Origin: Candidatus Tumulicola sp.
GTDB lineage: Bacteria > Vulcanimicrobiota > Vulcanimicrobiia > Vulcanimicrobiales > Vulcanimicrobiaceae
NCBI GenBank assembly: GCA_036490465.1
Contig: DASXDV010000186.1
Span: 17,225 to 81,224 of the forward strand
Direction of reading: 5' to 3'
Length of the DNA stretch: 64,000 nt
The notes beneath the pieces are model-generated. The model was not told the origin of the DNA and did not search any database. It worked only from the letters and a program-made list of their open reading frames with translations. Position 1 is the first letter of the stretch. Each line of letters opens with the position of its first letter. Shown one piece after another: positions 7,451 to 45,330 of this stretch. The position numbers and the translations under genes are program-made.

Positions 7451-7466
7451 GCACCGCTTTCTTCGG

Positions 7467-28705: not shown

Positions 28706-28729
28706 GACAGCAGCGAAAGAGAGTAAGCG

Positions 28730-29173: not shown

Positions 29174-29232
29174 CGTTTTGACGGTTCACCGCGTGAAGCC
29201 GTAGCAGCTACGTTTGATGGCATTCGAGTGGC

Positions 29233-30513
29233 CTAAGGTGGGGTAATGGAAAAGATCGTTCCGCACCCTCCCGAATGGCAGCCTTTGCCGCCGCCGCCGT
29301 AACCGGTCGTGCCGTAGACAATCCCGTTTGATAAGACAAGGCCGGCCTCCGGCGTCGAGCCGTCCTTGCGGCCGCCCAAAAAGTTATGCAAAATAGTGTA
29401 TCCCGAACCGTCGAGCTTCAACGAAAAAACCGTGCCAGTGTACGTTCCACCGCTGTACGTTACGCCGTATAACGTACCGTTTCTGTGCGCAAGATTGCCG
29501 ACGGGAAATATACCGTCGCCTCCACTCTGGAACTTGTGCAAGAGGACCTCTTGTCCCGTAGATGGGTTTAGGGAAAACACGGTTCCGCAGCCATTAACAT
29601 CGAAATCTTCGCAACCGCCCTCCCCTCCGGACGCAGTAACTCCATAGAGGAGACCGTTTACCGATATCAGTCCGCCCATCGGAACGGCTCCATCGTTCGC
29701 GCCCCCTCGGAACCGGTATAGTACTGTTTCCTGCGGTCCCGACGGTCCCAATGCGATCGAAAAGACCGTTCCACAGCCCGTGTTGCGAGAGCAATTTCCG
29801 CCTGGGTTGGAACCGCCTGATTCGGTTGTGCCGTACAGCACGTTACCGATCGCAAGGAGGTCGCCTTTCGAGATTGCGCCGTCCGGTCTTCCCTTAAAGC
29901 GATATAGTACGGATTCGTGGCCGCTACTATCGATAGAAAACACCGATCCATGCCCGTCGTAACCCCCGCTCGTCGTTCCATAGAGCATCCGTCCGACGAC
30001 CGCCATTCCACCTATCGGAGTACGGCCATCACGGGTTCTCTTAAAATAATGCAACACCGTTTCGCTGCCCGAGCTCAGTTCGACACTGTAAACGATTCCA
30101 TATCCAGGTCTAGCGGTAGTTCCGTAGATGGCGTTTCCGAGGGCTGTGACGCCCGAGTACGGCGTCCATCCGTCGGGACTATTTGCAAAAGAATGAAGCA
30201 CCGTCTCCTTGACCGACGGCTTGAGCGACAGAGAAAAAACCGTTCCGCAGCCGAGCGAACCGCATTGTGATCCGCCGTCTAGAGTCGTCCCATACAGTAA
30301 ACCCTTCAGCGCAAACAGCGAACCGTACGGGTAAGCCCCGGCTGTATGATTGGGGAAAGCATAAACTAGCTTGAACGTCGCTTGATCGGGTCGTGCATCA
30401 GACTGAGAGACGGCAGTAACGGTCCCGGGGCTCATGTTTGGACCAGGACCGGCACAGGCGATCAATAGCGAACCACAAATTACGATCGTCATGACGCTTG
30501 AGTGCATCTTCAA
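29233..30513 (-). CDS. lipoprotein made of seven 'GloVer'-type tandem repeats (G.LYGTT..GG...GTVF)
   Basis: MKMHSSVMTIVICGSLLIACAG carries a signal peptide and lipobox. Seven ~48-aa repeats follow, each with (L/I/V)YG(T/V)T...GG...G(T/S)(V/I)F(S) and ...VLH.F...DG..P. The DNA is visibly less GC-rich than its flanks. Confidence 0.8.
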   Translation of the reverse strand: MKMHSSVMTIVICGSLLIACAGPGPNMSPGTVTAVSQSDARPDQATFKLVYAFPNHTAGAYPYGSLFALKGLLYGTTLDGGSQCGSLGCGTVFSLSLKPSVKETVLHSFANSPDGWTPYSGVTALGNAIYGTTARPGYGIVYSVELSSGSETVLHYFKRTRDGRTPIGGMAVVGRMLYGTTSGGYDGHGSVFSIDSSGHESVLYRFKGRPDGAISKGDLLAIGNVLYGTTESGGSNPGGNCSRNTGCGTVFSIALGPSGPQETVLYRFRGGANDGAVPMGGLISVNGLLYGVTASGGEGGCEDFDVNGCGTVFSLNPSTGQEVLLHKFQSGGDGIFPVGNLAHRNGTLYGVTYSGGTYTGTVFSLKLDGSGYTILHNFLGGRKDGSTPEAGLVLSNGIVYGTTGYGGGGKGCHSGGCGTIFSITPP

Positions 30514-30875
30514 ACTCCAGGTCGAACAGTTGTCTGACGGTTACCGTCGTCCCCAAGGCCGACCAATAACTTACGAAGTACTTCCGAAAGTTGTCGTTGT
30601 TCTGACTGCTCGATCACGGCGCCTGGCCGTTCTCGACGTGTTTGATTGTTGCGGCATCGATGAGCGTCTTACCTTGGTGGTTGGATGCGCTTGATTGCCG
30701 CAACGACCGCTTTGAGGCTCCTTTCTGCCGCCGGTTTGGCGCAGAATGCGGGGCCACGGGTGTCTTGCAGTTTTGCCGCGAACTGAAGTCTTCTGGGTAT
30801 CGTTTAAGGCAATGTTTGTGAAAATTAAAAAGTCGACGGTGCCTTGGAACCAATCTCGGGAATCAGGAGTACGAC

Positions 30876-31535
30876 ATGCGAAAAATCATTGGCGCCGCAT
30901 TTATCTCCCTGGACGGCGTGATGCAGGCACCCGGCGGACCGACCGAGGATCCGACCGGCGGGTTTAAGTACGGCGGATGGCTGCCGCCTTATGCGGACGA
31001 AGCCAGCGAGAAGGCGATCGACGACCTGTTCGATCGTTCGTTCGACCTGCTGTTGGGGCGGCGGACGTACGACATCTTTGCTGCGTACTGGCCGTATGCC
31101 AAAGGCAGCGAGATCGGCGAGACGTTTACCATGGTGCGCAAGTACGTCGTTACGCACGGCGAAAAGCCGCTGAATTGGCAAAACAGCGAGCCGGTTTCGA
31201 GTATCGAAGCCGTGGCTCGGCTTAGAAATAGCGATGGCCCCGAACTGCTCATCCAAGGCAGCAGTACGCTCTATCCGCAGTTGCTGGCTGCCGGGTTAAT
31301 CGATCGATTGATTCTGATGACGTTCCCGATTGTGCTTGGAGACGGGAAGCGGCTGTTCGGCGGAGGCACGCCAAGCCATGCGATGCGCATGACCGACCAC
31401 GTGGTGTCGCCTCGCGGCACGATCGTTGCGCGCTACGAGCCCGCCGGCGCGCTTGAGACCGGAAGTTTCATAAACCAAGAGCCAAGCGAACTAGAAGTCG
31501 CACGCCGGAAATCGATGGCAGAGGGAACGTGGTGA
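30876..31535 (+). CDS. dihydrofolate reductase family protein (RibD C-terminal domain type)
   Basis: MRKIIGAAFISLDGVMQAPGGP...LLLGRRTYDIFAAYWP...LLIQGSSTLYPQLLAAGLIDRLILMTFPIVLGDGKRLF matches the YwjB/RibD_C-like family. Confidence 0.85.
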   Translation: MRKIIGAAFISLDGVMQAPGGPTEDPTGGFKYGGWLPPYADEASEKAIDDLFDRSFDLLLGRRTYDIFAAYWPYAKGSEIGETFTMVRKYVVTHGEKPLNWQNSEPVSSIEAVARLRNSDGPELLIQGSSTLYPQLLAAGLIDRLILMTFPIVLGDGKRLFGGGTPSHAMRMTDHVVSPRGTIVARYEPAGALETGSFINQEPSELEVARRKSMAEGTW

Positions 31536-31574
31536 CGGCCGCTCGACATACGCAGCCGATCGGAAACGGCTTGG

Positions 31575-32093
31575 ATGAACCTCGTTTGTGACCGTGAGGT
31601 AACGTTGAGACCGCCCAGGGCAACCGACGCGGAAGCAATCGCGCGGCATGCAAACGATCGCGACGTCTGGATCAACTTGCGCGACGGAATGCCTCACCCC
31701 TACACGTTGCAGGATGCGGTCACTTGGCTTGAGAGCGTTCGGGACCAAAACCCGATGGTTAGTTTCGTCATCGTTTCCAACGGGCAGCCCATTGGCGGAA
31801 TCGGGTTGGTCCTCGGGAGCGATATCGAGCGGTGCTCGGCCGAAGTCGGCTACTGGTTGGGAAGAGAACACTGGGGCAACGGAATCGCTACCGCCGCCCT
31901 TCGGCGAATCTGCCGGTATGCGTTCGAGGAACTAGCGTTGCTGCGCGTTTTCGCCACGCCGATCGCGTGGAATCCGGCCTCGTTCAGAGTCCTCGAGAAG
32001 GCCGGTTTCGAACGCGAAGCAACGATGCGCAACGCCTGCATCAAGGATGGCCGAGTCGCGGACATGGCGCTCTACGCCAAAATATCGGAGTGA
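31575..32093 (+). CDS. GNAT N-acetyltransferase (RimJ/RimL-like)
   Basis: VTLRPPRATDAEAIARHANDRDVW...GYWLGREHWGNGIATAALRRICRYAFEELALLRVFA...NPASFRVLEKAGFEREA is a typical Acetyltransf_3-type GNAT. Confidence 0.85.
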   Translation: MNLVCDREVTLRPPRATDAEAIARHANDRDVWINLRDGMPHPYTLQDAVTWLESVRDQNPMVSFVIVSNGQPIGGIGLVLGSDIERCSAEVGYWLGREHWGNGIATAALRRICRYAFEELALLRVFATPIAWNPASFRVLEKAGFEREATMRNACIKDGRVADMALYAKISE

Positions 32094-32557
32094 GTGGGAA
32101 CGACGTCTGCGTCCGTGAAGCGACGATCGAAGACCTTGAAGCGGTCGTTCGTCTTCACCATCACGTCCTCGAAACGTCGCTGCCGTACTTACCTATCCTC
32201 CACACGATCGAGGAGGGACTCGTATTCTTCGCAGGAGTGTTTAGCAGGTGCACGGTTCTCGTCGCCCGGGAGGGGGGCACGATCGTCGGCTATTGCGCGT
32301 ACCGCGACGGCTGACTCGAGCACCTGTACGTCCATCCGGACCAGCAACGTCGTCGCATCGGCACGACCCTATTGGAAAACGCCATGAAAGGCCAGGACGT
32401 TCTGCAGTTATGGGCTTTTCAGAGGAACCTCCGAGCCATCAAGTTTTATGAACGACATGGTTTCCGACTCGTCCGCGAGACCGACGGCTCGGGAAACGAG
32501 GAGCGAGAGCCGGATGCGCTCTATGCTTGGAATAGGGGCGGTGACTCGGCGCCCTAA
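32090..32557 (+). pseudogene. second GNAT acetyltransferase interrupted by an in-frame TGA
   Basis: GTG 32090 overlaps the previous stop (GTGA). VREATIEDLEAVVRLHH...VLVAREGGTIVGYCAYRDG is followed by TGA (32312-32314). The same frame then continues LEHLYVHPDQQRRRIGTTLLENAM...LQLWAFQRNLRAIKFYERHGFRLV, which is GNAT motif A/B. The stop sits where Trp (TGG) would fit. Confidence 0.7.
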
Positions 32558-33831
32558 CGGACCCCCGTGTAGTCGTAGGGATAGTACGATTCCCAAAACC
32601 ACGGCGTATACGTGTCGCCAATGAGGTCGGCGAGCAGGTACTTGAAGATACTTTCGCCGTTCGAACTATTCGTCAGGATGACGAGCGCAGTTCCGGCGTC
32701 CGGGAACGCGACTGTATAGTTTTCGGTCCCATCGTCGTGGCCTTCCTTAAAGTATGCGCGCCCGTACGGAGACGTAAAGAGTCCCCAGCCCAAACCGTAC
32801 GAAAGCTCTATCGCCCGGTTCGCACTCGTGGTTTGCGACGATGGAGTCGGGAATTGATGAACCGAATCTATGGCAATTTGGGGCTGCAACATCTCCTGCC
32901 ACGAAGCCGCGCTCAAGCCGTCGTGACGAAGAGTGGCGGCGATGAACGACGTGTAATCGGTAATGGTCGTGTCCATGGAACCGGCGGCTCGGGCGTCCGT
33001 CCGGTGGTGATGTCCCAACGGTACTCCTTTTTCGTCGTAACCCAGCGCCGTGTTCGACGCAAACTGCGGCTGCCACGCCAGGCTCGATCGCCGCATGTCG
33101 AAAGGGATAAAGATACGCTCGCGCATGAGCCTATCGACGTTGAGGCCCAGACCCTTTTCGAGGACGAACTGAAGCAAATTGATCCCTTCTCCAGAGTAGC
33201 TGTAGCGCGTTCCGGGCGAAAACTTTATGTCGAGCTTTCCGTCTGCACTGATAAACCGCCAGTTCGGCAGGCCGCTGGTGTGCGCGAGCAACATTCGCGC
33301 GGTTAAGAGTTCGTAGCGGGCATCGCTTTTTAGATCGGCATACTTTGAGTACGACGGCAGGGGCTTGCTGAGATATTCGTAAACCGGCCGGTCAAGGTCG
33401 AGGTAATGTTCGTCCACGAGTTGCATGACCATGTAAGCAGCCGCGGCTTTCGTGAGCGAGGCGGCGTACATGATCGTATCGGTTTCCAGCGGCGCGCAAG
33501 CGGCCACGTCGCGCAGACCGTAGGCGCGGACGTATACCAGGCGCCCGTCGTTGATAATCCCGATCGCCAGGCCCGGCACGCGACCGGCCTGCATCAGCGA
33601 CTCTGCCCGGCGGTCGACGTCCGCGGTCGATATTGTGCGGCCATCAATCCGCTGGATTTCTACCGTAGCGGCCAAACCGGGCCTCCATGTCAACGCGCAT
33701 GCCAGCACTAGCACGATCGCGGCGAGCGCCTTCGACATATTGCGATGTATTTCGGAGAAACGCGGATCGCGCCTCCGATCCGGATCCGTCGACGCCACGA
33801 TCGCTCTATGCCGACTCCGCGAGGATCTCAC
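32554..33831 (-). CDS. serine hydrolase, beta-lactamase (class C / esterase) family, exported
   Basis: Signal-like AAIVLVLACALTW. The SxxK motif is in MYAASLTKAAAAY. YSYSGEG is a YxN-like region, and the C-terminal part is typical of the Beta-lactamase (PF00144-type) family. Confidence 0.85.
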   Translation of the reverse strand: MRSSRSRHRAIVASTDPDRRRDPRFSEIHRNMSKALAAIVLVLACALTWRPGLAATVEIQRIDGRTISTADVDRRAESLMQAGRVPGLAIGIINDGRLVYVRAYGLRDVAACAPLETDTIMYAASLTKAAAAYMVMQLVDEHYLDLDRPVYEYLSKPLPSYSKYADLKSDARYELLTARMLLAHTSGLPNWRFISADGKLDIKFSPGTRYSYSGEGINLLQFVLEKGLGLNVDRLMRERIFIPFDMRRSSLAWQPQFASNTALGYDEKGVPLGHHHRTDARAAGSMDTTITDYTSFIAATLRHDGLSAASWQEMLQPQIAIDSVHQFPTPSSQTTSANRAIELSYGLGWGLFTSPYGRAYFKEGHDDGTENYTVAFPDAGTALVILTNSSNGESIFKYLLADLIGDTYTPWFWESYYPYDYTGVR

Positions 33832-33832
33832 A

Positions 33833-35038
33833 TCATTCCAGGCGTTCGACTTGGCGTAGTGCGGGGAAGAGTTTCATCCAGATCAGCGCGATGAGGATGG
33901 AGGCCGCGCCGCCCAGTGCGGCGGCCGGCATCGCGCCGAGGAGGGCGGCGGTCACGCCGCTTTCGAACGCGCCGAGTTGATTCGAAGCGTTGATGAAAAG
34001 GAAGTTGACCGCGCTGACCCGGCCGCGCATCGCATCGGGCGTGGCGAGCTGAACGAAGGACGCGCGGATCACGACGCTGATCGTGTCGGCGGCGCCCATG
34101 ACGGCCAGGGCGATCAGCGATACGGCGATCGAACGCGACACGGCGAAGAGCACGGTAAACGCGCCGAACGCGATCACGGCCGCAAACATGCGCGCGCCGA
34201 CCCGGCGGCGCAAGGGACGACGGGCGAGCACGAGGGTCACCACGAGCGCCCCGACTGCCGGTGCCGCGCGTAACGCGCCCAAACCCCACGGCCCCGTGTG
34301 GAGGATATCGCGGGCGTAGATTGGCAAAAGCGCCGTCGCTCCGCCGAATAGCACGGCGAACAAGTCGAGCGAAATCGCGCCCAGAATCGCCGGATTGCGA
34401 TAGACGAATGCGACGCCCTCGAAGAGCGTCGAGAGGGTCGGCGCCTTTCGCAGCGCTGGCGAGCGCGCGACCGCGATCGCGCCGTTTAGCGTTCCCGACA
34501 GCAGCCAGAACGCGGCCATGATGGCATACGGCACGCCCGGCGAGACGGCATAGGCCAACCCGCCGAGGGCCGGACCGCCGATGGTGGCCACTTGGAAGAC
34601 GCCGCTGGAAAGCGCCATTCCTCGTTGCAGTGTTGCGACCGGCGTGACGCCGGGCAGAAGCGCGGCCGCGGCGGGACTCTCGAAGGCACCGGCGATCCCC
34701 AGAACCGTCACGGCCGCAAAGATTTCGGGGACGGTCAGCCAGCGGCCGAAGCTGCCCCAGGCGAGAAACGCCGCCGCCAGCCCTTCGACGCACTGACAGA
34801 ACTGTACGACGCGCTGACGGTCGTACCGATCGGCGACGTGTCCGGCCGCAAATACCAGGAGGGCCGACGGCACAAACTGAGCTAGCCCCACCATACCGAG
34901 TGCGAGTGCGCTGCCGGTGAGGGCATAGATTTGCCAGCCGAGCACGACCGAACCCATTTGCTCGGAGAACTCGGAGAAGCCGCGCGCCCAAAAATATAAC
35001 CGGAACGGCCGATGCGCGAACAGGCTCGGTTCGCGCAT
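33833..35038 (-). CDS. MFS transporter (EntS/MFS_3-like)
   Basis: 401 aa with 12 predicted helices. FRLYFWARGFSEFSEQMGSVVLGWQIY and GHVADRYDRQRV resemble enterobactin-exporter-like MFS_3 proteins. Confidence 0.85.
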   Translation of the reverse strand: MREPSLFAHRPFRLYFWARGFSEFSEQMGSVVLGWQIYALTGSALALGMVGLAQFVPSALLVFAAGHVADRYDRQRVVQFCQCVEGLAAAFLAWGSFGRWLTVPEIFAAVTVLGIAGAFESPAAAALLPGVTPVATLQRGMALSSGVFQVATIGGPALGGLAYAVSPGVPYAIMAAFWLLSGTLNGAIAVARSPALRKAPTLSTLFEGVAFVYRNPAILGAISLDLFAVLFGGATALLPIYARDILHTGPWGLGALRAAPAVGALVVTLVLARRPLRRRVGARMFAAVIAFGAFTVLFAVSRSIAVSLIALAVMGAADTISVVIRASFVQLATPDAMRGRVSAVNFLFINASNQLGAFESGVTAALLGAMPAAALGGAASILIALIWMKLFPALRQVERLE

Positions 35039-35058
35039 CGGCGTTCTTTTGTCCGGTC

Positions 35059-36069
35059 CTAGAACACGGCGTTGGGTGAGTCGCTGACTCCTTCGGCTCC
35101 GTCGAGACCGTTGGCCGTGCCGAGCGTGGTGACGAGCGCGCCCGACGGATAATCGTAAACCGTTACGGTGCCGTTTCCGTTGTTGGCGTTGAACAGGAGC
35201 TTTTCGCTCTTGTTCAACGCGACGTGGAACGGATCGCTTAGCCCCGTCACCAGCGGCGTGGCCGAAGAGTATGGCGGGGCGATCAGGTCGATCGAGCCGT
35301 TCTGATCGTCTGCGATCAAGTTGGCATTCTTATCGAGTACCAGACCGCCGGGCGACGTGACGGTCGCGCCGAGGGGCGTGGGCGACGATTGTCCCTTTTT
35401 AAACTCCTCGAAACCGCCGTTGAACGCCGCATTGAAGAACGAGACGAACAAATTGCCGTGGGCATCGACCGCAATGCCTTCGGGGCCCATGTTGACGCTC
35501 AACTGCTTGCCGATCTTGTTCTTGCACTGGGCAAACTTATCGATATAGCCGGGCGATTCTAGGTCGTTAAAATCGACGACATAAACGTTGCCTAAGAGAT
35601 CGGTCGTGACGTTGATCGGATCGACGATCCCGGCCGAATACGTGCATTTCGGCGACGTTTGATGCGGGGCGTACTCTACGACGTCTTTGTTGACGACGTC
35701 GGCTACGTAGAGGTTTCCAGATTTGTCGACCCAGACGCCGTCGCTGTCGCCGAAGCCGGTGAGGCTTCCGACGTTTTGATACGTTTTGTTCTTGAGGATC
35801 TGGACGGTCGGACCGGCGTCTGAGACGAACAGATCCATCTCGACTTTGTGTTTCTTTTCGGGTCGCGCGGGCAAACTCGCGTGGAACGGGGAGCCAAATC
35901 GAGTATCGACGCCCGAGGGAAGAATCGCGCCGCGCAGCGCTTGCGCTTGCTGGGAACTCCCCGGGACGGCTCCTCCCGGTCCCTGCGTCGATGCGGAGGA
36001 ACATGCAGCTAGGGCAAAAACGATGGCGGCGCCCAGAATCGTGCGGGCGACGGACGAGCGAGCGTTCAT
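35059..36069 (-). CDS. beta-propeller (NHL-like repeat) lipoprotein
   Basis: ILGAAIVFALAACSS is the lipobox region. Recurrent repeats are GNLYVADVVNKDVVEYAP, GNVYVVDFND, GNLFVSFFN and ANLIADDQNGSIDLI. It is a paralogue of the disrupted gene at 15047-16103. Confidence 0.75.
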   Translation of the reverse strand: MNARSSVARTILGAAIVFALAACSSASTQGPGGAVPGSSQQAQALRGAILPSGVDTRFGSPFHASLPARPEKKHKVEMDLFVSDAGPTVQILKNKTYQNVGSLTGFGDSDGVWVDKSGNLYVADVVNKDVVEYAPHQTSPKCTYSAGIVDPINVTTDLLGNVYVVDFNDLESPGYIDKFAQCKNKIGKQLSVNMGPEGIAVDAHGNLFVSFFNAAFNGGFEEFKKGQSSPTPLGATVTSPGGLVLDKNANLIADDQNGSIDLIAPPYSSATPLVTGLSDPFHVALNKSEKLLFNANNGNGTVTVYDYPSGALVTTLGTANGLDGAEGVSDSPNAVF

Positions 36070-36088
36070 ACAAATCTCCTCTGAGTGT

Positions 36089-36748
36089 TTAGCACTTTCG
36101 GGTGTAGTCGTTGCCTCCGCCCCGCAGATGCTTGCCGTCGGGCGTGAGCGTCATGGCGTGCGTTCCGTAATACGTTAGGGTTGCCGCGGTTCCGTAGAGG
36201 ATCCAGTTTCCCGAAACGCCGTCGCTGTCGGTCAGATCGCCGTCGATCGTCATCGTCAGCGTGAGGCCGGAATTCTTATCCGAGGTCCAGGTTCCGACGA
36301 GGTTCGCGGTGGTGCAGCCCGTCGGAGGCGGCGCTGGGGTTGCCAGCGGCTTTACCGCCTTGCCTGAGAAGTTGTGGGCGACGTCCAAGCAGAGATCGTC
36401 GGCCGAGTAAGGACTTTGCGGCGTTTGCACGACGCACGTGAACGTCACCGCGTAGCCTTTTGCGGCGGCCGCGCAACTGACGACGGCGGAGGTCGTCGTC
36501 GGACCGACGACGCCCAGTGGTCCTACGGCGAGGAACTCGCCGGGTATCGGCTCGGAAACGTTCATCAAATAGGCGCCTAGCGCCGTCTTTGCTTTGGCGC
36601 TGCAGTCGTCGGCCGTTCCGCTCGGGATGACGTAGCGAATGCCGATGGACATTTCGACGGCGGCGGATGCCGGGGAGCCGCAAGCGAGCGCTACGAGAGC
36701 GGCGGCCGCTGCGAACAACGCGCACCGGCGGCGCAATGCCGCGGTCAC
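36089..36748 (-). CDS. secreted Cys-containing protein, paralogue B (extra C-terminal domain)
   Basis: GTG 36748 overlaps the upstream stop (GTGA). VTAALRRRCALFAAAAALVALACGSPASA is the signal. The domain IRYVIPSGTADDCSAKAKTALGAYLMNV...VSCAAAAKGYAVTFTCVVQTPQSPYSADDLC is shared with 36745-37188. About 90 further residues (TGCTTANLVGTWTSDKNSG...) follow. The upstream part of ORF 36089..36970 is overlap in another frame. Confidence 0.5.
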   Translation of the reverse strand: MTAALRRRCALFAAAAALVALACGSPASAAVEMSIGIRYVIPSGTADDCSAKAKTALGAYLMNVSEPIPGEFLAVGPLGVVGPTTTSAVVSCAAAAKGYAVTFTCVVQTPQSPYSADDLCLDVAHNFSGKAVKPLATPAPPPTGCTTANLVGTWTSDKNSGLTLTMTIDGDLTDSDGVSGNWILYGTAATLTYYGTHAMTLTPDGKHLRGGGNDYTRKC

Positions 36749-37188
36749 GGTAGCCGCCCCACCGCGCTGCTCGAATCGCGAGCAGCGGCTTTGGCTCCCG
36801 GAAATGCCGCGACCAACTTGGCGCACAAGCCGGTAGCCGTATCCGGATTGGGCGGCACCTGCGCCGCGCAGGCAAACGTGACGACGTAGCCGGTGTCGAC
36901 CGGGTAGCAATGAATCGACGCGGCGGCGGAAGCGTGACCGGCACTGTCGAGCGCGCCGTACGCGAGCCACTCACCCGAACCGTCCTCCGATTCGATGGCG
37001 TTTTGCAAAACCGAGTTCAGGGCCGTCTTGGCCTTCGCACCGCACGAACTCACCGGCTCGTTCGGGACGACCACGCGAGCGCCGACGACCGTTTGCAAGT
37101 CGGCTGACGCGGCCGCGCCGCTCAACGCGACGGCCACTCCGAAGGCGATCGCACAACCCGCGCTTCGATAGCGAAAAGTCTTTATCAC
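36745..37188 (-). CDS. secreted Cys-containing protein, paralogue A
   Basis: The signal is CAIAFGVAVALSGAAASA. It is followed by VVVPNEPVSSCGAKAKTALNSVLQNA...IHCYPVDTGYVVTFACAAQVPPNPDTATGLC, the same Cys-spaced domain as the next gene. Confidence 0.5.
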   Translation of the reverse strand: MIKTFRYRSAGCAIAFGVAVALSGAAASADLQTVVGARVVVPNEPVSSCGAKAKTALNSVLQNAIESEDGSGEWLAYGALDSAGHASAAASIHCYPVDTGYVVTFACAAQVPPNPDTATGLCAKLVAAFPGAKAAARDSSSAVGRLP

Positions 37189-37267
37189 GGCGCCCCTCCC
37201 CGGTGGCCCGATCGACCACCGAGCCGATGCGTTTGACGGCCCGCAGGGGCACTCCCCTCGAAGCCGC

Positions 37268-37738
37268 CTACGCGGCCGGGGCAGTCAACTCCGTCTCGCC
37301 GTTGGGGCAGAACGCTTCGTGGGTCGAATGCGGCACGTAGTACGCGTGCAGATCATAGTGCGGGATCGGATAGCCGGCGTGCCCGTAGGGGACGTACTCG
37401 ATGTCGACGTGATCGATGGTATAACCGGGCAGCGGTTTGAGTACTCCGGTGTAGGTCTTGCCGGCGGCGAATAATTTCTTGTCGATCATCACTTCGGTGA
37501 ATACGGGTTTGCCGCGATAGACGCCGTAGATCGGGCCGAACGGAAGGTTCTTCGGGTTGGCCCAGTGTTCGCCCATGCCCTTGACGCAGGGTGAGACCAG
37601 GAGTGCGTCCGACGGTATTCCCGCCGGCCGCACCTTCGGCTGGGGCGGAAGCGGGGGCGCGCCGGCCGGAGCGGCCGCCGCCGCACCGCCTCCGGTACAG
37701 GCAAGTGCGGCAATCAGGATCAGGGTGCGAGTCGTCAT
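37268..37738 (-). CDS. exported hypothetical protein (probable lipoprotein)
   Basis: MTTRTLILIAALACTGGG is followed by a Pro-rich linker and a His/Tyr-rich ~110-aa domain (GMGEHWANPKNLPFGPIYG...YGHAGYPIPHYDLHAYYVPH). No family securely recognised. Confidence 0.5.
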   Translation of the reverse strand: MTTRTLILIAALACTGGGAAAAAPAGAPPLPPQPKVRPAGIPSDALLVSPCVKGMGEHWANPKNLPFGPIYGVYRGKPVFTEVMIDKKLFAAGKTYTGVLKPLPGYTIDHVDIEYVPYGHAGYPIPHYDLHAYYVPHSTHEAFCPNGETELTAPAA

Positions 37739-37765
37739 GCGGCCTCCTTTAGCGTTTTGTAACGG

Positions 37766-39017
37766 TTAGTGCTCGTAACGACGTGGGCTGTCGATCTCGA
37801 CAAAGCGGTGTGCGCGCCGGACGTCCACTTGCGGATCGATCGCTCTTTCAAGCTGCGCTTGCAGGTCTTCGAACGCGTTGGGATCGCTGCCGTAGACGTA
37901 TTGTCGGGTATTGACTAAGAAGGCATAGTTACTGCCGTTGGGAAGCTGCTCGGCCCACGTGTTGCTTCCGGGCATCGAGCCTTCGCGCGCCCAATCGGCG
38001 CCTGGCTGCGGAGTGCCGACGCCCCAGATGAGGTAGTTCTTCATGAGGGCCAACATGGAGTCTGCGTTGGTCGCGATCGCCGAAGCGCCGCCGGCAACCT
38101 CGAGCACCATGTCGTCACCGCTATACGGGTAGGGATATTGCTGCTGCGACCGCACGTAAACGGCGGAAAGGCCTGCGTAGGCGGAATAGTACTTGGCGAC
38201 TTCGCCGGGGAGCGGCTTGCCGACGGTTGGCGAGATTTTGATGTTGTCGACCCCGAGCGGACCCGCCACGGTTTTCGCGACGTAGGCCCAGTAGCTCATC
38301 TTCGAGGCCCTGGCGACGACCATGCCCAGCACGGTATAGCAGAAGTTACAGTAGGCGTACGTCCCCCGGGGCTTCTTGCAGCGGCTGTCCGAGTTGATAG
38401 CGGACGTAGTCGACCGGGGTCACCGAGTGCTTGAGGTTTAGTGCGAGTGCGATTTCGCGCATTGCGAACGTCGGATCGTAGTACGGAGGCTTCGAGTCGT
38501 CCCACCCGGACTCGTGCAGGATCATATCCTCGATCGTGATGTCGTAGACCCGCTTGTCGACCTTGGCATTTTTTGGAAGCGGCTGGGTGATGCCGAGATA
38601 CTTGAAGACCTTCGCGGAGGGGTCGACTTTCTTGCTCTCGATCAGTTCGTACAGCGCTGCGTCCGTCCAAGCCTTGGTATTGCTCGCAAGGCGCATGATC
38701 GTCGACGGCGCGGTCGTGGACTTCGCCAATCCCTTATAAGTGTAGGCGTGCGAAAAGGTCGTCTTGCCTTTGACGGAAACGCCGAGCTGAGCGTTGGGCA
38801 CCTGTTGCGCGACCATAAATTGAATTACGAGATCGTCGAGCTTGGAGTTCTTCCCCGGGCCCTTGACGACGATCGGGGCGTTAGGGATCGCGCGAACGTT
38901 ACCGGCAAGATTGGGGACGAACCCGCCGGCCTGGGGATTCGGCGCAGACGAGCACGCCGCCAGGACGCCTGCCGTCAACGCGATCCCCGCCGCAACGGGT
39001 CGAAAGCGGCTAATCAT
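37766..39017 (-). pseudogene. beta-lactamase-family serine hydrolase lipoprotein split by a frameshift in a C5G4 run
   Basis: ATG 39017 gives MISRFRPVAAGIALTAGVLAACSS and an SxxK motif in LASNTKAW. The frame ends ...QLGQPLQEAPGDVRLL at TAA (38346-38348). Dropping one base of the CCCCCGGGG run (38363-38371, plus strand) gives ...EAPGTYAYCNFCYTVLGMVVARASKMSYWAYV. This continues into ORF 37766..38332 and matches the family 'PGt.f.YsN.gy.lLG' block. Confidence 0.7.
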
Positions 39018-39118
39018 CAGGAGCTGCCCTTTCGTAATCAAGGATTTAGGGCGCTGATTCCGGAGGCTCCCGGACCTCCCTTGGGACTTTCGGGAAACGG
39101 TGTGGAACGAGAGGCAAA

Positions 39119-39751
39119 ATGGCCGGTGCAGTTTTCGGGGCGGCCGTGACCGCATTCGTTGCCCTCTTCCCAATCGTCAACCCGATTGGCGGCTTGGCCG
39201 TGTTCTTTGCGCTCACGAGCGACGATAGCGAGGAGCAGCGCCGGGCGTACTCGCTTCGGATCGGCCTCTACGTGGTCGCAATTCTGCTGGCCTTCGCATT
39301 GGCGGGGTCGTGGGTTCTCGAGTTCTTCGGGATCTCGCTATCGGCGCTGAGGATCGCCGGCGGCCTGATCGTTGCTCACACGGCGTGGGCGATGGTCACC
39401 GCGTCGAGCCGCACCACGCCGGCCGAAAAAGCCGAAGCCGAGCAAAAGGACGACATCTCGTTTAGCCCCATGGCGATGCCGATGCTCGCCGGCCCGGGCT
39501 CGATCGGCGTCGTCATGGCGCTGGCCGCGCGGCCCGATCCGGGCGTCTGGATGATCGGCATCGCGTTTGCCGTGGTTGCGATGGGAGCGCTGGTTTACTT
39601 GTTGCTGCGCTTAGGGGGTCCGCTGGCTCGGCGGATGGGACCGGGCGCGCTCGGCGCGATCGACCGGATTCTCGGCTTCCTGATTCTCGCGATCGCCATC
39701 GAACTGATCATTAACGGATTCAAGGGGATCTATCCTAAGTTCGGAATTTGA
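39119..39751 (+). CDS. MarC family (UPF0056) integral membrane protein
   Basis: FVALFPIVNPIGGLAVFFALTSD...GISLSALRIAGGLIV...MPMLAGPGSIG... is the MarC signature pattern. 210 aa with 6 helices. Confidence 0.85.
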   Translation: MAGAVFGAAVTAFVALFPIVNPIGGLAVFFALTSDDSEEQRRAYSLRIGLYVVAILLAFALAGSWVLEFFGISLSALRIAGGLIVAHTAWAMVTASSRTTPAEKAEAEQKDDISFSPMAMPMLAGPGSIGVVMALAARPDPGVWMIGIAFAVVAMGALVYLLLRLGGPLARRMGPGALGAIDRILGFLILAIAIELIINGFKGIYPKFGI

Positions 39752-39763
39752 CGCGCTCGCGCT

Positions 39764-40786
39764 CTACACGCGGCCGCGGGCCGCGCACGAAGCGGTGCTT
39801 TTTCCGAAGATGACGCCCAGACCGCACGCCGAGGTGAACATCCGCCGATTGTCGTGCGGAACGCCCCGCACGTACGCGTAGTCTTGAGCCGTGCCAGCCG
39901 GATGACGACGTGCTAGGTACGCGACGTAGTACTTGCCGCGCGCGTAGCGATATGGCCCCTGCGCCTCGCCGCCGCAGGAGCGATCGAGGTCGTCTTCGGC
40001 CGGATTCGTGTCGGCGGTTCCAAGCAGATAGGTGACGTGGCGGCGCACGTAGCGGCGCTCGAGCTGTGCGTCCGTCCCGACGACGTAGGGCGGCGCGCCG
40101 GCGAGGCCGTAACGCCACCGATTGAAGTCGGCGCAGCCGGTCTGCGGCACCGGCCGGTAGTTTCCGAAATAGAAATACGAAGAGGGGTTGGCAACGATCA
40201 AATGCACCGGCACCGCGCTGCCGGGATCGAGTTGCTTCGCTTTGCCGACGACGGCATAGCGCTGCACGATTTGACCGCCCGCGGAGTGCCCGATGAGGAC
40301 GATCTCGCGCATCTTCGGAAAGCGCGATCGGTCGGCCAGTCGCGCGATCATCGCGTCGAATACGTCGTAGGTGCTCACGGGTGCGGGCGAAAGCGCATCC
40401 GATCCGCCGGGCCACTTCCCGCTCCACCACAGGGTGTTGGCGGCCACGGCGTGACCCGCCAGATCGCCGCGTTCGACGAACTGCGGGGCGATCAGCAACG
40501 TTCCGCCGGCGTGCGCTTGGGCGATCGCGATGGCGCCGGTATCGTAGTAGTAATCGGCGTCGCGCAGCACCCCATGAACGACGATAATCGCGCGGGTGGC
40601 CGCTCGATCGCCGTCGAGCGAGCCGCTGCCGAAGTACCGCGCGACTCCGGACCCGCGCGCAGCGACGACCAGAAACTGGCGGTCGGCCAACTTCCCCGAG
40701 TTGTCGGGCTGCGGCGTGGAGGTCGGGGATACTGCCGCGGCGGACGCGAGCAGCGCGACGAGTGCGAGCGCCTTGGTCATGGGCAC
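39764..40786 (-). CDS. secreted alpha/beta-fold hydrolase
   Basis: The signal is MPMTKALALVALLASAAAVS. The nucleophile elbow is in IVLIGHSAGGQIV. No closer family assignment. Confidence 0.65.
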   Translation of the reverse strand: MPMTKALALVALLASAAAVSPTSTPQPDNSGKLADRQFLVVAARGSGVARYFGSGSLDGDRAATRAIIVVHGVLRDADYYYDTGAIAIAQAHAGGTLLIAPQFVERGDLAGHAVAANTLWWSGKWPGGSDALSPAPVSTYDVFDAMIARLADRSRFPKMREIVLIGHSAGGQIVQRYAVVGKAKQLDPGSAVPVHLIVANPSSYFYFGNYRPVPQTGCADFNRWRYGLAGAPPYVVGTDAQLERRYVRRHVTYLLGTADTNPAEDDLDRSCGGEAQGPYRYARGKYYVAYLARRHPAGTAQDYAYVRGVPHDNRRMFTSACGLGVIFGKSTASCAARGRV

Positions 40787-40928
40787 CCCTTATCGGCCGC
40801 TTCCGCCGCTCCTGTCTTCGACATATTCACAAGGCAACGCGTCCCACTTGGACAAAGGCGCGGTTACGCGGCCGACGGAATCGGTTCGGCAATCACCGAA
40901 CCCGACGCAAGGAGCTTAAGCGACGACG

Positions 40929-42383
40929 ATGATAACGGGAGTGCAACCGGCCATGCCGACCGACCTGCGCGATTTTCTGATGCTCACCTACGGCGAGCTC
41001 GAAGACCTCAATCTTAGCGCCAAGCAGCAGCGAAAGGATCGCGCGGCTGCCCACCAACTCGCCGAAGAACGGCTTGGATATCTGGCTGGGGAAAAGCGGA
41101 TCAAAGCCGTAACCGTGCTGTTCAGCGACCTCGAAGGGCGCCTGCATATGTTGGATTACGACAAGAAATTCTTGTTGAACTCCCACGACAATCTGACGTT
41201 CGACGGATCGTCTATCCGCGGGTTCACGGCGCAGCGCGAGAGCGATCTGCGACTGGTCCTGGACTGGAGCGCCTTCTACTGGGCTCCCGCCGACGTCTTC
41301 GGTCCCGGGAAAGTCCTCGTGTTCAGCGACGTGCTCGCGCGGGACGGATCGCCGTTCGCCGGCGACATCCGGGGAACGCTCAAGAAACTCTCCAACGAGT
41401 GTTACGCCAAAGACGGCTACACGCTCAACGCCGCCAACGAAATCGAGGGTTTCCTGTTCCAAGGACTCGACGCCGAGCGCCGCTATCACGAAACCGGCTC
41501 CTTCGAGTACGTCAACACCGGCGGCTACTACCACTCCCTGCCGGGCGACCCGCTGCGAACGTTCATCGACTCGGTCGCCGAGGTACAGCGCGCCATGGGA
41601 TTCCAGAACGAAAAGGATCATCCCGAAGTCGCGCCGTCGCAGTTCGAAATCAACTACGGATACGGCGAAGTCGTTGCCGCCGCCGACCAAATCCAGTTAT
41701 ACAAGCTGATTTGCCGTCAGGTCGCGACGCGACTCGGCATGACGGCCAGCTTTCTGCCCAAACCGGTGGTCGGCGTCAACGGCAGCGGCATGCACACCAA
41801 CGTCTCGGTCAGCAAGGACGGCAAGAATCTGTTTTGGGATCCCGACGGCCCCGAACAGCTCAGCGAGTTCGCCTGGCAGTTCGTCGACCGGACCCTCACG
41901 CACGCCCGCGACGTCTGTCTGATGCTCAACTCCAGCGTCAACGCCTACCGGCGCCTCGACCCGCATTTCGAAGCACCCAATCAAATCAAGGCGTCGGCGG
42001 TCGACCGCGGCTCGATGGTCCGCGTCCCGATCGGTAACGAGCGCAGTTCGCGCGTTGAAGTTCGCTCGGTTGCGCCCGACGCCAATCCCTACATGGTCAT
42101 GCTGGCAGTCTTCAAAACCGGACTGCACGGCAGCATCAGCGGCGAGCAGAACCTTCGCCAAGCCGAGCACTACTTACCCGACAACATCTACGATGCGCTC
42201 TCCGATTTCCGCCAATCGGCCTGGACCGGCAGCCTGCTAAGCGACGACGTAAAGAAGCGCTATGCCGAACTCAAACAAGCTAGTGCGGACCGCTGCCCGC
42301 GTCTTCTCGGGTCGTTCGTGAAGGCTCAAGAAGTGCAGTACCATCACGAAGTCTACAACCAATACCTCTGGAGCCTGTTCTAG
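40929..42383 (+). CDS. glutamine synthetase family protein
   Basis: FSDLEGRLHML, NLTFDGSSIRGF, NEIEGFLF, DHPEVAPSQFEINY, FLPKPVVGVNGSGMHTNVS, NAYRRL and SAVDRGSMVRVP...RVEVRSVAPDANPY are GS catalytic-domain blocks. The start could be ATG 40953. Confidence 0.85.
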   Translation: MITGVQPAMPTDLRDFLMLTYGELEDLNLSAKQQRKDRAAAHQLAEERLGYLAGEKRIKAVTVLFSDLEGRLHMLDYDKKFLLNSHDNLTFDGSSIRGFTAQRESDLRLVLDWSAFYWAPADVFGPGKVLVFSDVLARDGSPFAGDIRGTLKKLSNECYAKDGYTLNAANEIEGFLFQGLDAERRYHETGSFEYVNTGGYYHSLPGDPLRTFIDSVAEVQRAMGFQNEKDHPEVAPSQFEINYGYGEVVAAADQIQLYKLICRQVATRLGMTASFLPKPVVGVNGSGMHTNVSVSKDGKNLFWDPDGPEQLSEFAWQFVDRTLTHARDVCLMLNSSVNAYRRLDPHFEAPNQIKASAVDRGSMVRVPIGNERSSRVEVRSVAPDANPYMVMLAVFKTGLHGSISGEQNLRQAEHYLPDNIYDALSDFRQSAWTGSLLSDDVKKRYAELKQASADRCPRLLGSFVKAQEVQYHHEVYNQYLWSLF

Positions 42384-42406
42384 CGATCGGGTTCCGAGCG
42401 ACCGCG

Positions 42407-42610
42407 CTAGCGATGGCCTAAGTGCCAGCCGTGGGCGGGACAGGCGTACGGCGCGAGGCCGGCGCTGGTGCGTGGAATCGCGCGCTCGGCGAGCTTCTTG
42501 GTTGCGAACGCGGCTTTGGGAGAACCGGTTTTGTTGTAACACGACCGTGCGCCGCCGCGCTTACGAGGGTTTGGAGCGGGCTCTCCGTTAGCCGGCGTTG
42601 GGGGCTTCAC
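42407..42610 (-). CDS. small basic ORF ending ...YACPAHGWHLGH (very tentative)
   Basis: 67-aa ORF overlapping the desaturase 3' end by 23 nt. The C-terminus APYACPAHGWHLGHR recalls small actinobacterial-type proteins ending C..C..WHL(G/T)(H/S). No RBS seen. Could be a high-GC artefact. Confidence 0.2.
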   Translation of the reverse strand: MKPPTPANGEPAPNPRKRGGARSCYNKTGSPKAAFATKKLAERAIPRTSAGLAPYACPAHGWHLGHR

Positions 42611-43454
42611 GCGAGACGTGGGCGACTTCGCGCAGCCGCTGCTGCATCAGCTTGCTGGGTATCTTGATCCGATCCGCCAGGCGCAAAAACGCGAGCACGC
42701 GTACGTGCCACCAGGTCATGTCGATTTCGAACCAGCGCAAGCCGTGACGCGCCGAGAACGGAAAGGCGTGATGGTTGTTGTGCCAGCCTTCGCCGAACGA
42801 CATGAGGGCGACCCACCAACAGTTCGTCGAGCGGTCCGCGGTACTGTACGTTCGATATCCCAGCATGTGTGCGGCGCTGTTGACCAGCCACGTCGAATGG
42901 TAACTGACGACCAAGCGAACGAAGATGCCCCACACGACGAACGCCCATCCACCCAACGCGAACAGCAGCCCGGCGAGTGCGATTTGCAGCGGCAGGCTGA
43001 GCCAGCGCAGCGCGCGGTAGAAGGGGTCGGCGCAAAGATCCGGCGCGTAGCGGAGCACCTCTTCGTCGGTCGGATAATCGGCGTTGTACCGGTAGATCCA
43101 GTCGACGTGCGCCCACTTGAATCCGAGATGGATGCTGTGCGGGTCGCCTTCGCGGTCGGCGTGCGCGTGGTGCTTGCGATGGACGGCCACCCAGCGAATC
43201 GGATCGCCTTGCAGCGCCAGCGTGCCGCAGACCGCTAGAAAGTACTCCAGCGGTTTGCGCAGGCGCAAACTGCGGTGCGTGAGGGTCCGATGATAGCACA
43301 GCGTAATGCCTAAGGCGCCGGTAAAGTACGAGACGACGGCGGCGGCGACGAGCGCGTGCCAAGTGAAGAAGGCCGGTATGAGGGCGGCGAGGGCGCCCAA
43401 ATGAACGACGATGAGACCGGGACCGTTGAGCCGGCCGAAGATGCGTTGGATCAT
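42588..43454 (-). CDS. acyl-CoA/acyl-lipid delta-9-type fatty acid desaturase
   Basis: Three His boxes are present: HRTLTHRS, HRKHHAHADREGDPHS and GEGWHNNHHAFP. There are four hydrophobic segments. Confidence 0.9.
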   Translation of the reverse strand: MIQRIFGRLNGPGLIVVHLGALAALIPAFFTWHALVAAAVVSYFTGALGITLCYHRTLTHRSLRLRKPLEYFLAVCGTLALQGDPIRWVAVHRKHHAHADREGDPHSIHLGFKWAHVDWIYRYNADYPTDEEVLRYAPDLCADPFYRALRWLSLPLQIALAGLLFALGGWAFVVWGIFVRLVVSYHSTWLVNSAAHMLGYRTYSTADRSTNCWWVALMSFGEGWHNNHHAFPFSARHGLRWFEIDMTWWHVRVLAFLRLADRIKIPSKLMQQRLREVAHVSREAPNAG

Positions 43455-43467
43455 GCTCTCTTAACCC

Positions 43468-43504
43468 GTAAAAGACGCAGAGAGCCCGCGTAACGGGCTC
43501 TCTG
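43468..43504 (-). terminator. candidate intrinsic terminator downstream of the Zn-ribbon gene
   Basis: An 11-bp perfect stem (CAGAGAGCCCG / CGGGCTCTCTG, 43478-43504) has a 5-nt loop. On the minus strand it is followed by CGTCTTTTAC. Confidence 0.5.
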
Positions 43505-43530
43505 TTCGCTTAGACGATGCGTAAACGCGG

Positions 43531-43824
43531 CTAGCGGTAGCTGGGACGCGATGCGAAACAATCGCGGCAATAAACCGGCTTGTCGCCGCGCGGTTGGAAC
43601 GGCACTTCGGCCACTCCGCCGCATTGGCTGCAGGTCGCTTTGAACATCTCGCGATGTCCGCCGCCGCCTCCCTGCGAACGCCCGGCCTTGCGGGCGGCGC
43701 GGCAGTCGGCGCAGCGATTGGGCTTATTGGTGAAGCCCTTCATCGCAAAGAATTCCTGTTCGCCGGCGGTGAAGGGGAACTGACGTCCGCAATCCACGCA
43801 GGTGAGCATTTCATTGGTATACAT
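43531..43824 (-). CDS. double CxxC zinc-ribbon protein
   Basis: 97 aa with two modules, CVDCG...CADCR and CSQCG...CRDCF, separated by a Gly-rich linker. The pattern matches small 'zinc-ribbon domain-containing' proteins. Confidence 0.7.
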   Translation of the reverse strand: MYTNEMLTCVDCGRQFPFTAGEQEFFAMKGFTNKPNRCADCRAARKAGRSQGGGGGHREMFKATCSQCGGVAEVPFQPRGDKPVYCRDCFASRPSYR

Positions 43825-44068
43825 ACGAAACTAACGAGTCTCCTGAAATAAGTTAGTGATTGTTCTCCGGATCCGACTCGCTAGTACTTGGAACGTGAAC
43901 CTTGCGGGCTTCGACCTGGTGACCAGAACACTATACACCATCCCGCCCCGAAACGTTACCCCGGGGGGCATTTTCGGTCCGGCCGGCGGACCGGGCGCCT
44001 TGTTCGACCGGCCCGGAATGTGAGATACTACCGCCGTCGCTTTGCCCGCAGCCTCAGAAGGAGAGCGT

Positions 44069-44386
44069 TTGGCTCGTAAAGGTCGTAGCCGTCCCCGTAC
44101 CCGCGCGCCGGGAGGCAATAACGGGACCCCCGCCACCCCCGATACCTCGAAGGAAGCTCCGCTCGAGCTGTTCGGGACGATCAAGCAAGTATTCCCCAGT
44201 ACGACCTTTGCCGTCGAGTTGGAGAACGGACACACGGTGCTGGCGCACATCGCCGGCCGTTTGCGGCGCCACCGGATCAAGCTTCTGCTGGGAGACCGGG
44301 TCGAACTCGAGATGTCGCCGTACGACCTCACCAAGGCCCGGATCGTCTACCGCTACCGGGCGGGCGAGGCCCGGCGCGCCCACTAG
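44069..44386 (+). CDS. infA: translation initiation factor IF-1 with N- and C-terminal extensions
   Basis: The core LELFGTIKQVFPSTTFAVELENGHTVLAHIAGRLRRHRIKLLLGDRVELEMSPYDLTKARIVYRY is IF-1 (S1-like OB fold). TTG 44069 follows GAAGGAGAG. About 27 basic/Pro-rich residues precede the core and 8 follow it. An alternative start is TTG 44042. Confidence 0.85.
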   Translation: MARKGRSRPRTRAPGGNNGTPATPDTSKEAPLELFGTIKQVFPSTTFAVELENGHTVLAHIAGRLRRHRIKLLLGDRVELEMSPYDLTKARIVYRYRAGEARRAH

Positions 44387-44460
44387 CCGCAGGGAATCCA
44401 GCCTGCGCGAGCCGAACGTACGTTCGGTGGTTGCGGGCAGTGGCGCCCGCGTGAAGGGCA

Positions 44461-44470
44461 TGATAGGATG
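44461..44470 (+). promoter_or_regulatory. candidate extended -10 element upstream of rpsR (TGATAGGATG)
   Basis: The same AT-rich 10-mer appears upstream of rpsF (28246-28255), about 150 nt before the rpsR ATG. No good -35 lies at 17 nt (TGGCGC). Chance recurrence cannot be excluded. Confidence 0.25.
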
Positions 44471-44620
44471 AGCGCTGTTGCCGGCTCGCCGGCAGCAAAA
44501 TCCGGTCTCCGACCGGTGGTGCCGCGAACCTGTCGCGTCACCTGGCTAGGGTCTCGTCAGCCGTCCTTCGCGCGAAGGCGGCCCGCGCGACCGCCGACCA
44601 CCTAGTCGAAAGGACGACCG

Positions 44621-44866: not shown

Positions 44867-44872
44867 AAGGCC

Positions 44873-45322: not shown

Positions 45323-45330
45323 AGCGAGTC

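Follow-up and report, generated by a model that had tools for sequence, protein, structure and literature searches.

Why do rpsF-ssb and rpsR-rplI stand apart in a bacterium of the Vulcanimicrobiaceae? In the stretch analyzed here, 64,000 nucleotides of Candidatus Tumulicola sp. (contig DASXDV010000186.1 of assembly GCA_036490465.1; hereafter, the window), 15,447 bp with genes on both strands separate ssb from rpsR. A preliminary description, made from the letters alone, placed the end of ssb at 29173 and the start of rpsR at 44621, as confirmed by Pfam matches to SSB and Ribosomal_S18, and attributed the separation to a block whose left 10 kb had been horizontally acquired and was decaying. 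Comparison of the window with related and outgroup loci, denoted by L-numbers (L003, L083 and so on), led us to another answer: the interval is most probably a layered mosaic, that is, a hotspot of gene turnover within an old operon break, and not a single island.

The break between ssb and rpsR is an old lineage trait

Relatives were collected from both ends of the interval. A scan anchored on dnaB, with one genome per GTDB species, returned 11 metagenome-assembled genomes (MAGs) of Eremiobacterota/Vulcanimicrobiota as the only matches above 50% identity (72-87%), with Ca. Tumulicola closest and the next matches, from Bacillota and other phyla, at no more than 47%. Ten of these 11 loci were informative, L008 having only 72 bp upstream of rpsR. 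Anchoring on ssb yielded nine relatives (L013, L083-L087, L090, L174 and L175), including the closest relative of the window, L083 (95.6% identity in relA and 94.2% in AcrB). Tumulicola and Aquilonibacter are both placed in the Vulcanimicrobiaceae by NCBI. Comparative statements hold at about the level of the family, not the phylum, and draw on some 20 loci of uncultured MAGs, not on a species pangenome.

Following ssb to the right, we did not find rpsR next to it in any of the nine ssb-anchored loci; conversely, all ten informative dnaB-anchored loci had an intact rpsR-rplI-lonC-dnaB string, never with ssb directly upstream. Neither the relatives nor the Bacillota outgroups showed any interruption of this string. 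Across 23 outgroup loci, rpsF, ssb and rpsR were adjacent (or ssb and rpsR, where the contig was cut), and several Bacillota carried the whole string rpsF-ssb-rpsR-rplI-lonC-dnaB, which is the order of the window minus the gap. Among the relatives, the gap measured about 3.2 kb in L013, where it held MFS, thymidine kinase and CHAD genes, 8.9 kb in L086, 9.6 kb in L085 and 14.3 kb in L084 and L003 (one contig), compared with 15.4 kb in the window. With the split present in all informative relatives and its content differing between them, the proposal that an acquired block had caused the separation did not hold up. The break is a lineage trait that predates the divergence of the sampled Vulcanimicrobiaceae/Baltobacteraceae genera; its age is evident from the separate conserved region found upstream of rpsR in every relative.

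Both sides of the interval are well preserved. The left flank, at least AcrB-rpsF-ssb, was kept in L083-L087, L090, L174 and L175, and reached back through TauE, relA and a phosphoribosyltransferase gene in all but L174, which has other genes upstream of AcrB. The right flank, from MarC and the GS-like gene to rpsR-rplI-lonC-dnaB, was kept in L003, L004, L083-L086, L090 and L175; of the 11 GTDB representatives, 8 had a GS-like gene 3-6 kb upstream of rpsR.

A motif bound by S6:S18 almost always precedes operons containing both rpsF and rpsR, the only exceptions found being some Cyanobacteria (Fu et al. 2014, PMC3895269); a split is therefore uncommon, yet it is a lineage trait here. Genes and gene order are those of the canonical S6 operon described in the same study, rpsF retains a conserved leader, and the Bacillota outgroups are contiguous and continue with rplI-lonC-dnaB. 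In contrast to that operon, rpsR is not adjacent to rpsF-ssb in these bacteria and lies 3-15 kb away behind its own conserved upstream region, raising the question of how S6:S18 stoichiometry is kept up. Alignment of the region upstream of rpsF revealed a separate conserved promoter-like element and a GC-rich, structured-looking leader, which matched no Rfam family at E <= 10. An interrupted textbook operon need not signify a recent insertion, and naming a 10-15-kb island at this locus would mislabel conserved lineage genes as acquired.

Atypical composition is confined to the 4.65 kb after ssb

Composition was evaluated against the 64-kb window only, in which 36 background genes had a mean GC content at third codon positions (GC3) of 0.788 (standard deviation 0.031, minimum 0.732). 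In windows of 4 kb, only 27-34 kb deviated. Positions 29001-33000 showed a GC content of 0.580 (z -2.9) and a tetranucleotide distance of z +3.25 (r 0.865), the largest tetranucleotide deviation on the low-GC side, while 33-45 kb was compositionally the same as the rest of the window. At the level of genes, the six open reading frames (ORFs) in 29,233-33,738 had GC3 values of 0.49-0.73, all under the background-gene minimum, and the MFS gene and all genes rightward fell within the background range.

The low GC content ascribed to the whole left 10 kb in the preliminary description was thus found for 29,180-33,832 and not for 33.8-39.2 kb, where it is normal. In the same way, horizontal acquisition stands for 29.2-33.8 kb, given its foreign composition and its absence from L083, and falls for a single 10-kb unit. 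Only the 4.65 kb after ssb, the newest layer (29,180-33,832, or about 30% of the interval), is recently acquired or foreign. That description had also named uniform composition, together with the same split in all relatives, as the sign of an ancient gene order in place of an insertion; all relatives do have the split arrangement, and composition is not uniform.

Alignment placed the borders of this slot sharply. With blastn, DNA homology to L083 stopped at 29,179, 6 nt past the ssb stop codon, and began again with the final base of the MFS stop codon (33,833); homology with all relatives ended within about 10 nt of the ssb stop. At the same place, L083 carries 2,380 bp of other genes (Abhydrolase_1 and two GNATs). 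Because the slot lies between two convergent 3' ends, insertions there disrupt no promoter.

Each lineage carries its own cargo behind ssb

No two of the lineages examined had the same content between ssb and MarC, apart from the near-identical L085 and L086. Peptidase_M3 was present in L084 and L175, a Phd antitoxin gene in L085, L086 and L090 (with a PIN toxin gene after it in L085 and L086) and three GNATs in L174; further cargo among relatives comprised DUF1330/glyoxalase and, in five loci, a trio of HTH_20/prenyltransferase type. In L087 (10710-12242), a DDE_Tnp_1 transposase gene directly follows ssb, and after it come a gene weakly matching HipA_2, a DUF3037 gene and sulfatase genes, showing that the site does receive mobile elements.

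The GloVer-repeat lipoprotein gene, first in the slot of the window, belongs to a hugely expanded family whose named matches are from Eremiobacterota (Tumulicola, Cybelea). An orthologue in L088/L089 shares 86% amino acid identity and 87% nucleotide identity over 1.5 kb including about 200 bp upstream, delimiting a transferable unit of about 29209-30701 in the window; in L088/L089 this copy resides on a 55%-GC contig, 0.8 kb from a tyrosine-recombinase gene. Another orthologue adjoins ssb in L090 in the same convergent orientation, with 76% amino acid and 80% nucleotide identity. The window gene is hence nearer to the L088 copy (87% versus 80% of nucleotides) than to the syntenic one, and the spacers between ssb and GloVer are non-homologous (59 bp in the window versus 270 bp in L090). 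GloVer GC3 is about 0.6 in all three contexts and matches the surroundings only in L088. Scanning viral contigs with the GloVer protein returned no relative.

The remaining genes of the slot pointed elsewhere. No homologue of the RibD_C-type reductase was found by tblastn in the related loci compared, and a homologue of GNAT1 with 69% identity lies 2.3 kb downstream of ssb in a Baltobacteraceae MAG locus (L174). The intact beta-lactamase-family gene bla1 occurs at this locus only in the window lineage; its closest homologues (83% and 67%) are in unrelated contexts, and its named matches, at up to about 60% identity, come from Alphaproteobacteria, Myxococcota, Acidobacteriota, Gemmatimonadota and Planctomycetota. 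These comparisons show the slot to be a composite whose parts have separate histories, at least three in number: that of GloVer, that of RibD_C and the two GNATs, and that of bla1.

Two candidates were discarded. A cassette joining bla1 with RibD_C or the GNATs was rejected after no co-occurrence appeared among 82 bla1-homologue loci. The frame orf86 (30434-30694), a gene in the source annotation, is probably not a gene; its GC3 is 0.49 and it lies in the upstream region that travels with GloVer.

As a separate observation, the window carries a tandem duplication of the final 8 nt of ssb, stop codon included (CGTTTTGA CGTTTTGA, 29166-29181), and it is at this point that homology between relatives breaks off. 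Comparable duplications end ssb elsewhere, namely CGTTTTAG twice in L083, two copies in L085, three in L013 and partial copies in L084, L086 and L175, and in each locus the duplicated ends (8-9 nt) match the local stop codon. Slippage at a mini-repeat and a footprint of repeated insertion and deletion are both possible origins.

Resident genes are shared among relatives, and two genes of the interval are decaying

Right of the slot, 33.8-39.1 kb has normal composition and is common to relatives at 60-86% amino acid identity. The MFS gene and the beta-propeller lipoprotein gene are common only to the window and L083. Wherever the sequence of a relative covers the stretch next to MarC, it also contains the pair of Cys-rich paralogues, which share about 40% identity and matched no Pfam or NCBIfam family. 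Farther right, L003/L004, L083-L086, L090 and L175 all have MarC and the GS-like, zinc-ribbon and infA genes, as far as the loci extend; this conservation across the group agrees with the core-like character that the preliminary description had seen in the right part, and its list of genes for the whole block was likewise reproduced by Pfam and NCBIfam. At its N terminus, the IF-1 homologue encoded by the infA-like gene is extended by about 36 residues, a basic stretch that relatives have kept as well.

Three further observations concern these residents. In L083 (14046-15063), the propeller gene is split into two ORFs (138 and 184 amino acids), reflecting either a pseudogene or a long-read assembly error. 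A frameshifted beta-lactamase gene considered at 36.1-37.2 kb was ruled out, the stretch encoding two intact tandem paralogues (the Cys-rich pair) conserved in relatives. The extended IF-1 homologue occurs only in a Tumulicola-like subset (window, L003, L004, L085 and L086); because of this restriction, the infA-like gene may be an accessory paralogue, not the housekeeping gene.

Two genes of the interval are pseudogenes, in line with the decay described earlier. GNAT2 reads ...YRDG*LEHLYV... with a TGA at 32312, and scores 59.6 bits on Acetyltransf_7 once Trp is restored. In bla2, tblastn with the intact 417-amino-acid orthologue of L084 switches frame, and DNA alignment shows a 2-bp gap missing from two relatives. 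The in-frame stop and the frameshifted beta-lactamase gene reported earlier are real. The ssb protein of the window has residue-for-residue matches on a 564-kb contig of the JGI metagenome 3300037258, to which the window belongs, and on a 46.7-kb contig of 3300036790. This second assembly, which stems from another sample, matches the window with 100% identity along 15,165 bp (window 24,009-39,173) and contains both lesions. Across relatives, bla2 is intact in L084/L003 and L004, broken in the window and wholly deleted in L083, which has about 120 bp instead, making a stepwise loss visible from intact gene to frameshifted gene to deletion.

How the interval may have been assembled

The following course of events would account for these patterns. 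The ancestral string rpsF-ssb-rpsR-rplI-lonC-dnaB would have been broken between ssb and rpsR before the sampled genera diverged, and rpsR-rplI-lonC-dnaB would thereafter have been driven by its own conserved promoter and leader, an independence that would make the gap transcriptionally neutral ground. The gap would then have been filled with what are now family- or genus-level residents, namely the Cys-rich pair and the MarC, GS-like, desaturase, zinc-ribbon and infA-like genes; the MFS, propeller, TTHB210-like and bla2 genes form a genus-level layer common to fewer relatives. Between the ssb stop codon and, in the window, the convergent stop of the MFS gene lies the stretch that behaves as a turnover hotspot, with an accessory set peculiar to each lineage. 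Gain most likely occurred by recombination with other Eremiobacterota DNA through the conserved flanks, with occasional landing of mobile elements, as suggested by the insertion sequence after ssb in L087 and the integrase beside the closest GloVer copy in L088. Loss would proceed by point inactivation followed by deletion, as illustrated by the GNAT2 nonsense codon, the 2-bp deletion in bla2 and the disappearance of bla2 from L083.

Many hotspots of horizontal gene transfer lack mobile elements, and recombination is frequent at their flanking core genes (Oliveira, Touchon, Cury & Rocha 2017, PMC5635113). The present locus resembles them in its conserved syntenic bounds, its differing accessory content, its gain and loss and the absence of a recognizable mobile element here. 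It differs in having been identified from about 20 uncultured-MAG loci and in sitting inside an otherwise tightly conserved ribosomal-protein/ssb operon. As a hotspot of gene flux it is of an ordinary kind; it is nonetheless a clear case lacking mobility genes, placed between convergent stop codons, in a poorly studied and largely uncultured phylum.

With integrase-mediated genomic islands, in turn, the locus shares atypical composition (29,180-33,832 only), a border at the 3' end of a conserved gene, variable presence and accessory cargo; unlike such islands, it lacks an integrase, att-like direct repeats and a tRNA, and its units differ in their histories. When every ORF of 29.2-44.6 kb was scanned with Pfam and NCBIfam, no integrase, transposase or recombinase appeared. 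A repeat search of 28.6-44.7 kb gave only short, GC-rich, low-identity families and no convincing flanking direct repeat, and the 3' end of ssb (24 nt) had no second copy within 3 mismatches, with 11-mer matches at chance level. As to a tRNA or tmRNA target, none lies in the block, the only tRNA of the window being tRNA-Thr at 51192, and seven related loci contained no tRNA; at the gathering threshold, Rfam matched nothing but this tRNA in the whole window. These searches bear out the initial statement that integrase, transposase, tRNA and flanking direct repeats are missing, and no att-like repeat rose above chance. A sigma-70 consensus scan of 28-45.4 kb returned zero promoter-like matches, fewer than in shuffled sequences, and is uninformative for this organism; terminator-like matches in the same range were not clearly enriched, with none between ssb and the GloVer gene.

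The most serious competing explanation is differential loss alone from a large ancestral interval, without recent transfer, in which low GC3 would reflect gene-specific constraint or weak expression. Non-sister lineages do share cargo at this site (GloVer in L090, GNAT1 in L174, Peptidase_M3 in L084 and L175), the HTH_20/prenyltransferase trio is spread over five loci, bla2 is found in both L084 and L004, and ongoing loss is directly visible. On the other hand, all six slot ORFs lie under every background gene in GC3, and long residency should have ameliorated them; GloVer is closer to the integrase-adjacent copy on the 55%-GC contig than to the syntenic copy of L090, with unrelated ssb spacers; and bla1 and RibD_C are without counterpart at the site in any relative, with the relatives of bla1 located elsewhere. 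Differential loss accounts for part of the pattern, and we regard it as improbable as the whole explanation.

Much further behind comes the single acquired island of about 10 kb, supposed to have split a contiguous operon between ssb and rpsR and to be decaying now. The low-GC segment does directly adjoin ssb, two pseudogenes lie within the left 10 kb, and the outgroup state is a contiguous rpsF-ssb-rpsR. This explanation nevertheless has to face a split in 19 of 19 informative related loci with differing gap contents and sizes, an atypical composition spanning only 4.65 kb that itself has at least three histories, the normal composition and shared presence of 33.8-39.1 kb, and the lack of integrase, att repeat or tRNA, which together render it very improbable. 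Finally, an assembly artefact, in which a chimeric join or sequencing errors produced the low-GC segment or the pseudogene lesions, is hardly credible: the source is a metagenome contig and apparent frameshifts also affect two flagellar genes outside the interval, but the second assembly spans both low-GC junctions and both lesions (24,009-39,173) with 100% identity, neither lesion is a homopolymer slip (one is a TGG-to-TGA-type substitution, the other a 2-bp deletion), and a GloVer gene also adjoins ssb in an independent genome.

Several points weigh against the mosaic of successive acquisitions that we favor. Distant lineages have some of its cargo in the same place (GloVer in L090, GNAT1 in L174), and old residency with differential loss would give this pattern too. 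The compositional background consists of the 64-kb window only, and the low GC3 of GloVer genes could be intrinsic. Sampling covers one family, and several dnaB-anchored loci reach only about 7 kb upstream of rpsR, so that ssb may lie further upstream or elsewhere in them. The mechanism of gain is inferred, with pairwise identities as the flank data. Lastly, the second assembly, although it corroborates the sequence, derives from the same clonal population.

A conserved control region precedes rpsR

The region that we consider most worth pursuing, and more unusual than the hotspot, lies at the right end of the interval. About 230 nt before rpsR are conserved in all 11 relatives, though the upstream gene varies between infA, zinc-ribbon, porin, histidine kinase and CHAD genes; conservation irrespective of the upstream gene fits a long-standing independent promoter. 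Its elements follow in the order palindrome, promoter-like TGATAGGAT, hairpin and a helix (GGCTAG/CTAGTC) ending just before the Shine-Dalgarno sequence. RNAalifold predicted 15 pairs in the rpsR leader, 4 of them with compensatory changes. Searching Rfam with the rpsR upstream region gave no match at the gathering threshold and only sub-threshold noise at E <= 10.

The palindrome CGAACGTACGTTCG at 44413-44426 has the form CGAAC-N4-GTTCG and is the sole exact match in the window. In 354 kb of related loci this form occurred 11 times, always at the rpsR-upstream position, while 1.1 Mb of outgroup loci contained only two occurrences, neither near these genes. It was kept in 12 of the 13 sequences covering the position (the window and 12 related loci) and was degenerate in L005.

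The LexA operator of Gram-positive bacteria, the Cheo box, has the consensus CGAAC-N4-GTTCG. The palindrome upstream of rpsR fits this consensus exactly and is at most a candidate LexA site in this lineage. It precedes the predicted -35 element, an uncommon placement for the target of a repressor. It is conceivable, if rather doubtful, that the break between ssb and rpsR came with a new control region for rpsR-rplI-lonC-dnaB, consisting of a lineage-specific LexA-type palindrome and a structured leader, and that the neutral gap became a standing landing pad for accessory genes. If so, S18, L9, LonC and the replicative helicase would be under DNA-damage or other dedicated control, and S18 synthesis would be uncoupled from the S6:S18 feedback on rpsF.

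Feature coordinates and a flagellar region elsewhere in the window

Table 1. Features of the ssb-rpsR interval and its flanks, in coordinates of the window
Feature	Coordinates	Strand	Evidence and remarks
rpsF (S6)	28355-28705	+	Pfam Ribosomal_S6 3.6e-28; likely start ATG 28355; called as 116 amino acids in the source contig
ssb	28730-29173	+	Pfam SSB 4.6e-34; conserved left anchor of the hotspot
Variable slot	29180-33832		4,653 bp between convergent 3' ends of ssb and MFS gene; blastn breakpoints
GloVer-repeat lipoprotein	29233-30492	-	TIGR03803 143 bits (cut-off 44); lipobox LLIAC; GC3 0.58-0.59 by start codon
RibD_C-type reductase	30876-31535	+	Pfam RibD_C 1.1e-21; GC3 0.71
GNAT1 (Acetyltransf_3 type)	31575-32093	+	Pfam 3.1e-31
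GNAT2 pseudogene	32111-32557	+	In-frame TGA 32312-32314 at expected Trp
bla1, intact beta-lactamase-family (class C-like/CubicO) serine hydrolase	32554-33738	-	Pfam Beta-lactamase 4.3e-52
MFS_3 transporter	33833-35038	-	Pfam; 83% identity to L083; GC3 0.80
Beta-propeller lipoprotein	35059-36069	-	About 75% identity to L083; GC3 0.75; NHL/SBBP matches all sub-threshold
Two tandem paralogous Cys-rich exported proteins/lipoproteins	36089-37188	-	tblastn in L083-L086, L090 and L175, with cross-matches between paralogues
TTHB210-like lipoprotein	37268-37738	-	Pfam TTHB210-like 2e-05, just under cut-off; 86% L083, 76% L084
bla2 pseudogene, beta-lactamase-family lipoprotein gene	37766-39017	-	2-bp deletion at about 38364-38371
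Right module	39119-44386		Pfam and NCBIfam; normal composition; kept in L003, L004, L083-L086, L090, L175
MarC	39119-39751	+	
Alpha/beta hydrolase	39764-40786	-	Only window and L083
GS-like gene	40929-42383	+	
Desaturase	42588-43454	-	Absent in L085 and L086
zf_Tbcl (double zinc-ribbon protein)	43531-43824	-	
IF-1 homologue (infA-like)	44042-44386	+	TIGR00008 92.8 bits
Conserved non-coding region	44387-44620	+	Alignment of 11 relatives; palindrome, promoter-like element, hairpin, long-range helix; same position in L003-L013, L085 and L086
rpsR	44621-44866	+	Pfam Ribosomal_S18 1.9e-23
rpsR, rplI, lonC, dnaB	44621-48677	+	Pfam; lonC, TIGR02903 spore_lon_C 880 bits; conserved right anchor

Outside the interval, positions 1-8000 are the GC-richest part of the window (0.67-0.69), with a tetranucleotide z of up to 3.6, which equals the deviation of the low-GC segment in size but is opposite in direction; they coincide with a flagellar cluster. 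Within it, flhB and flhA (3254-7372) each appear to be split between two reading frames, with putative frameshifts near 4.62-4.66 and 6.02-6.16 kb: positions 2-192 and 204-321 of the Bac_export_2 profile fall in different frames, as do 1-300 and 351-586 of FHIPEP. These genes could be pseudogenes or reflect assembly errors, the region lying outside the second assembly. The same flagellar export cluster contains, at an odd location between fliP and fliQ, a methylenetetrahydrofolate reductase gene (MTHFR, 2144-3034, 7.6e-90).

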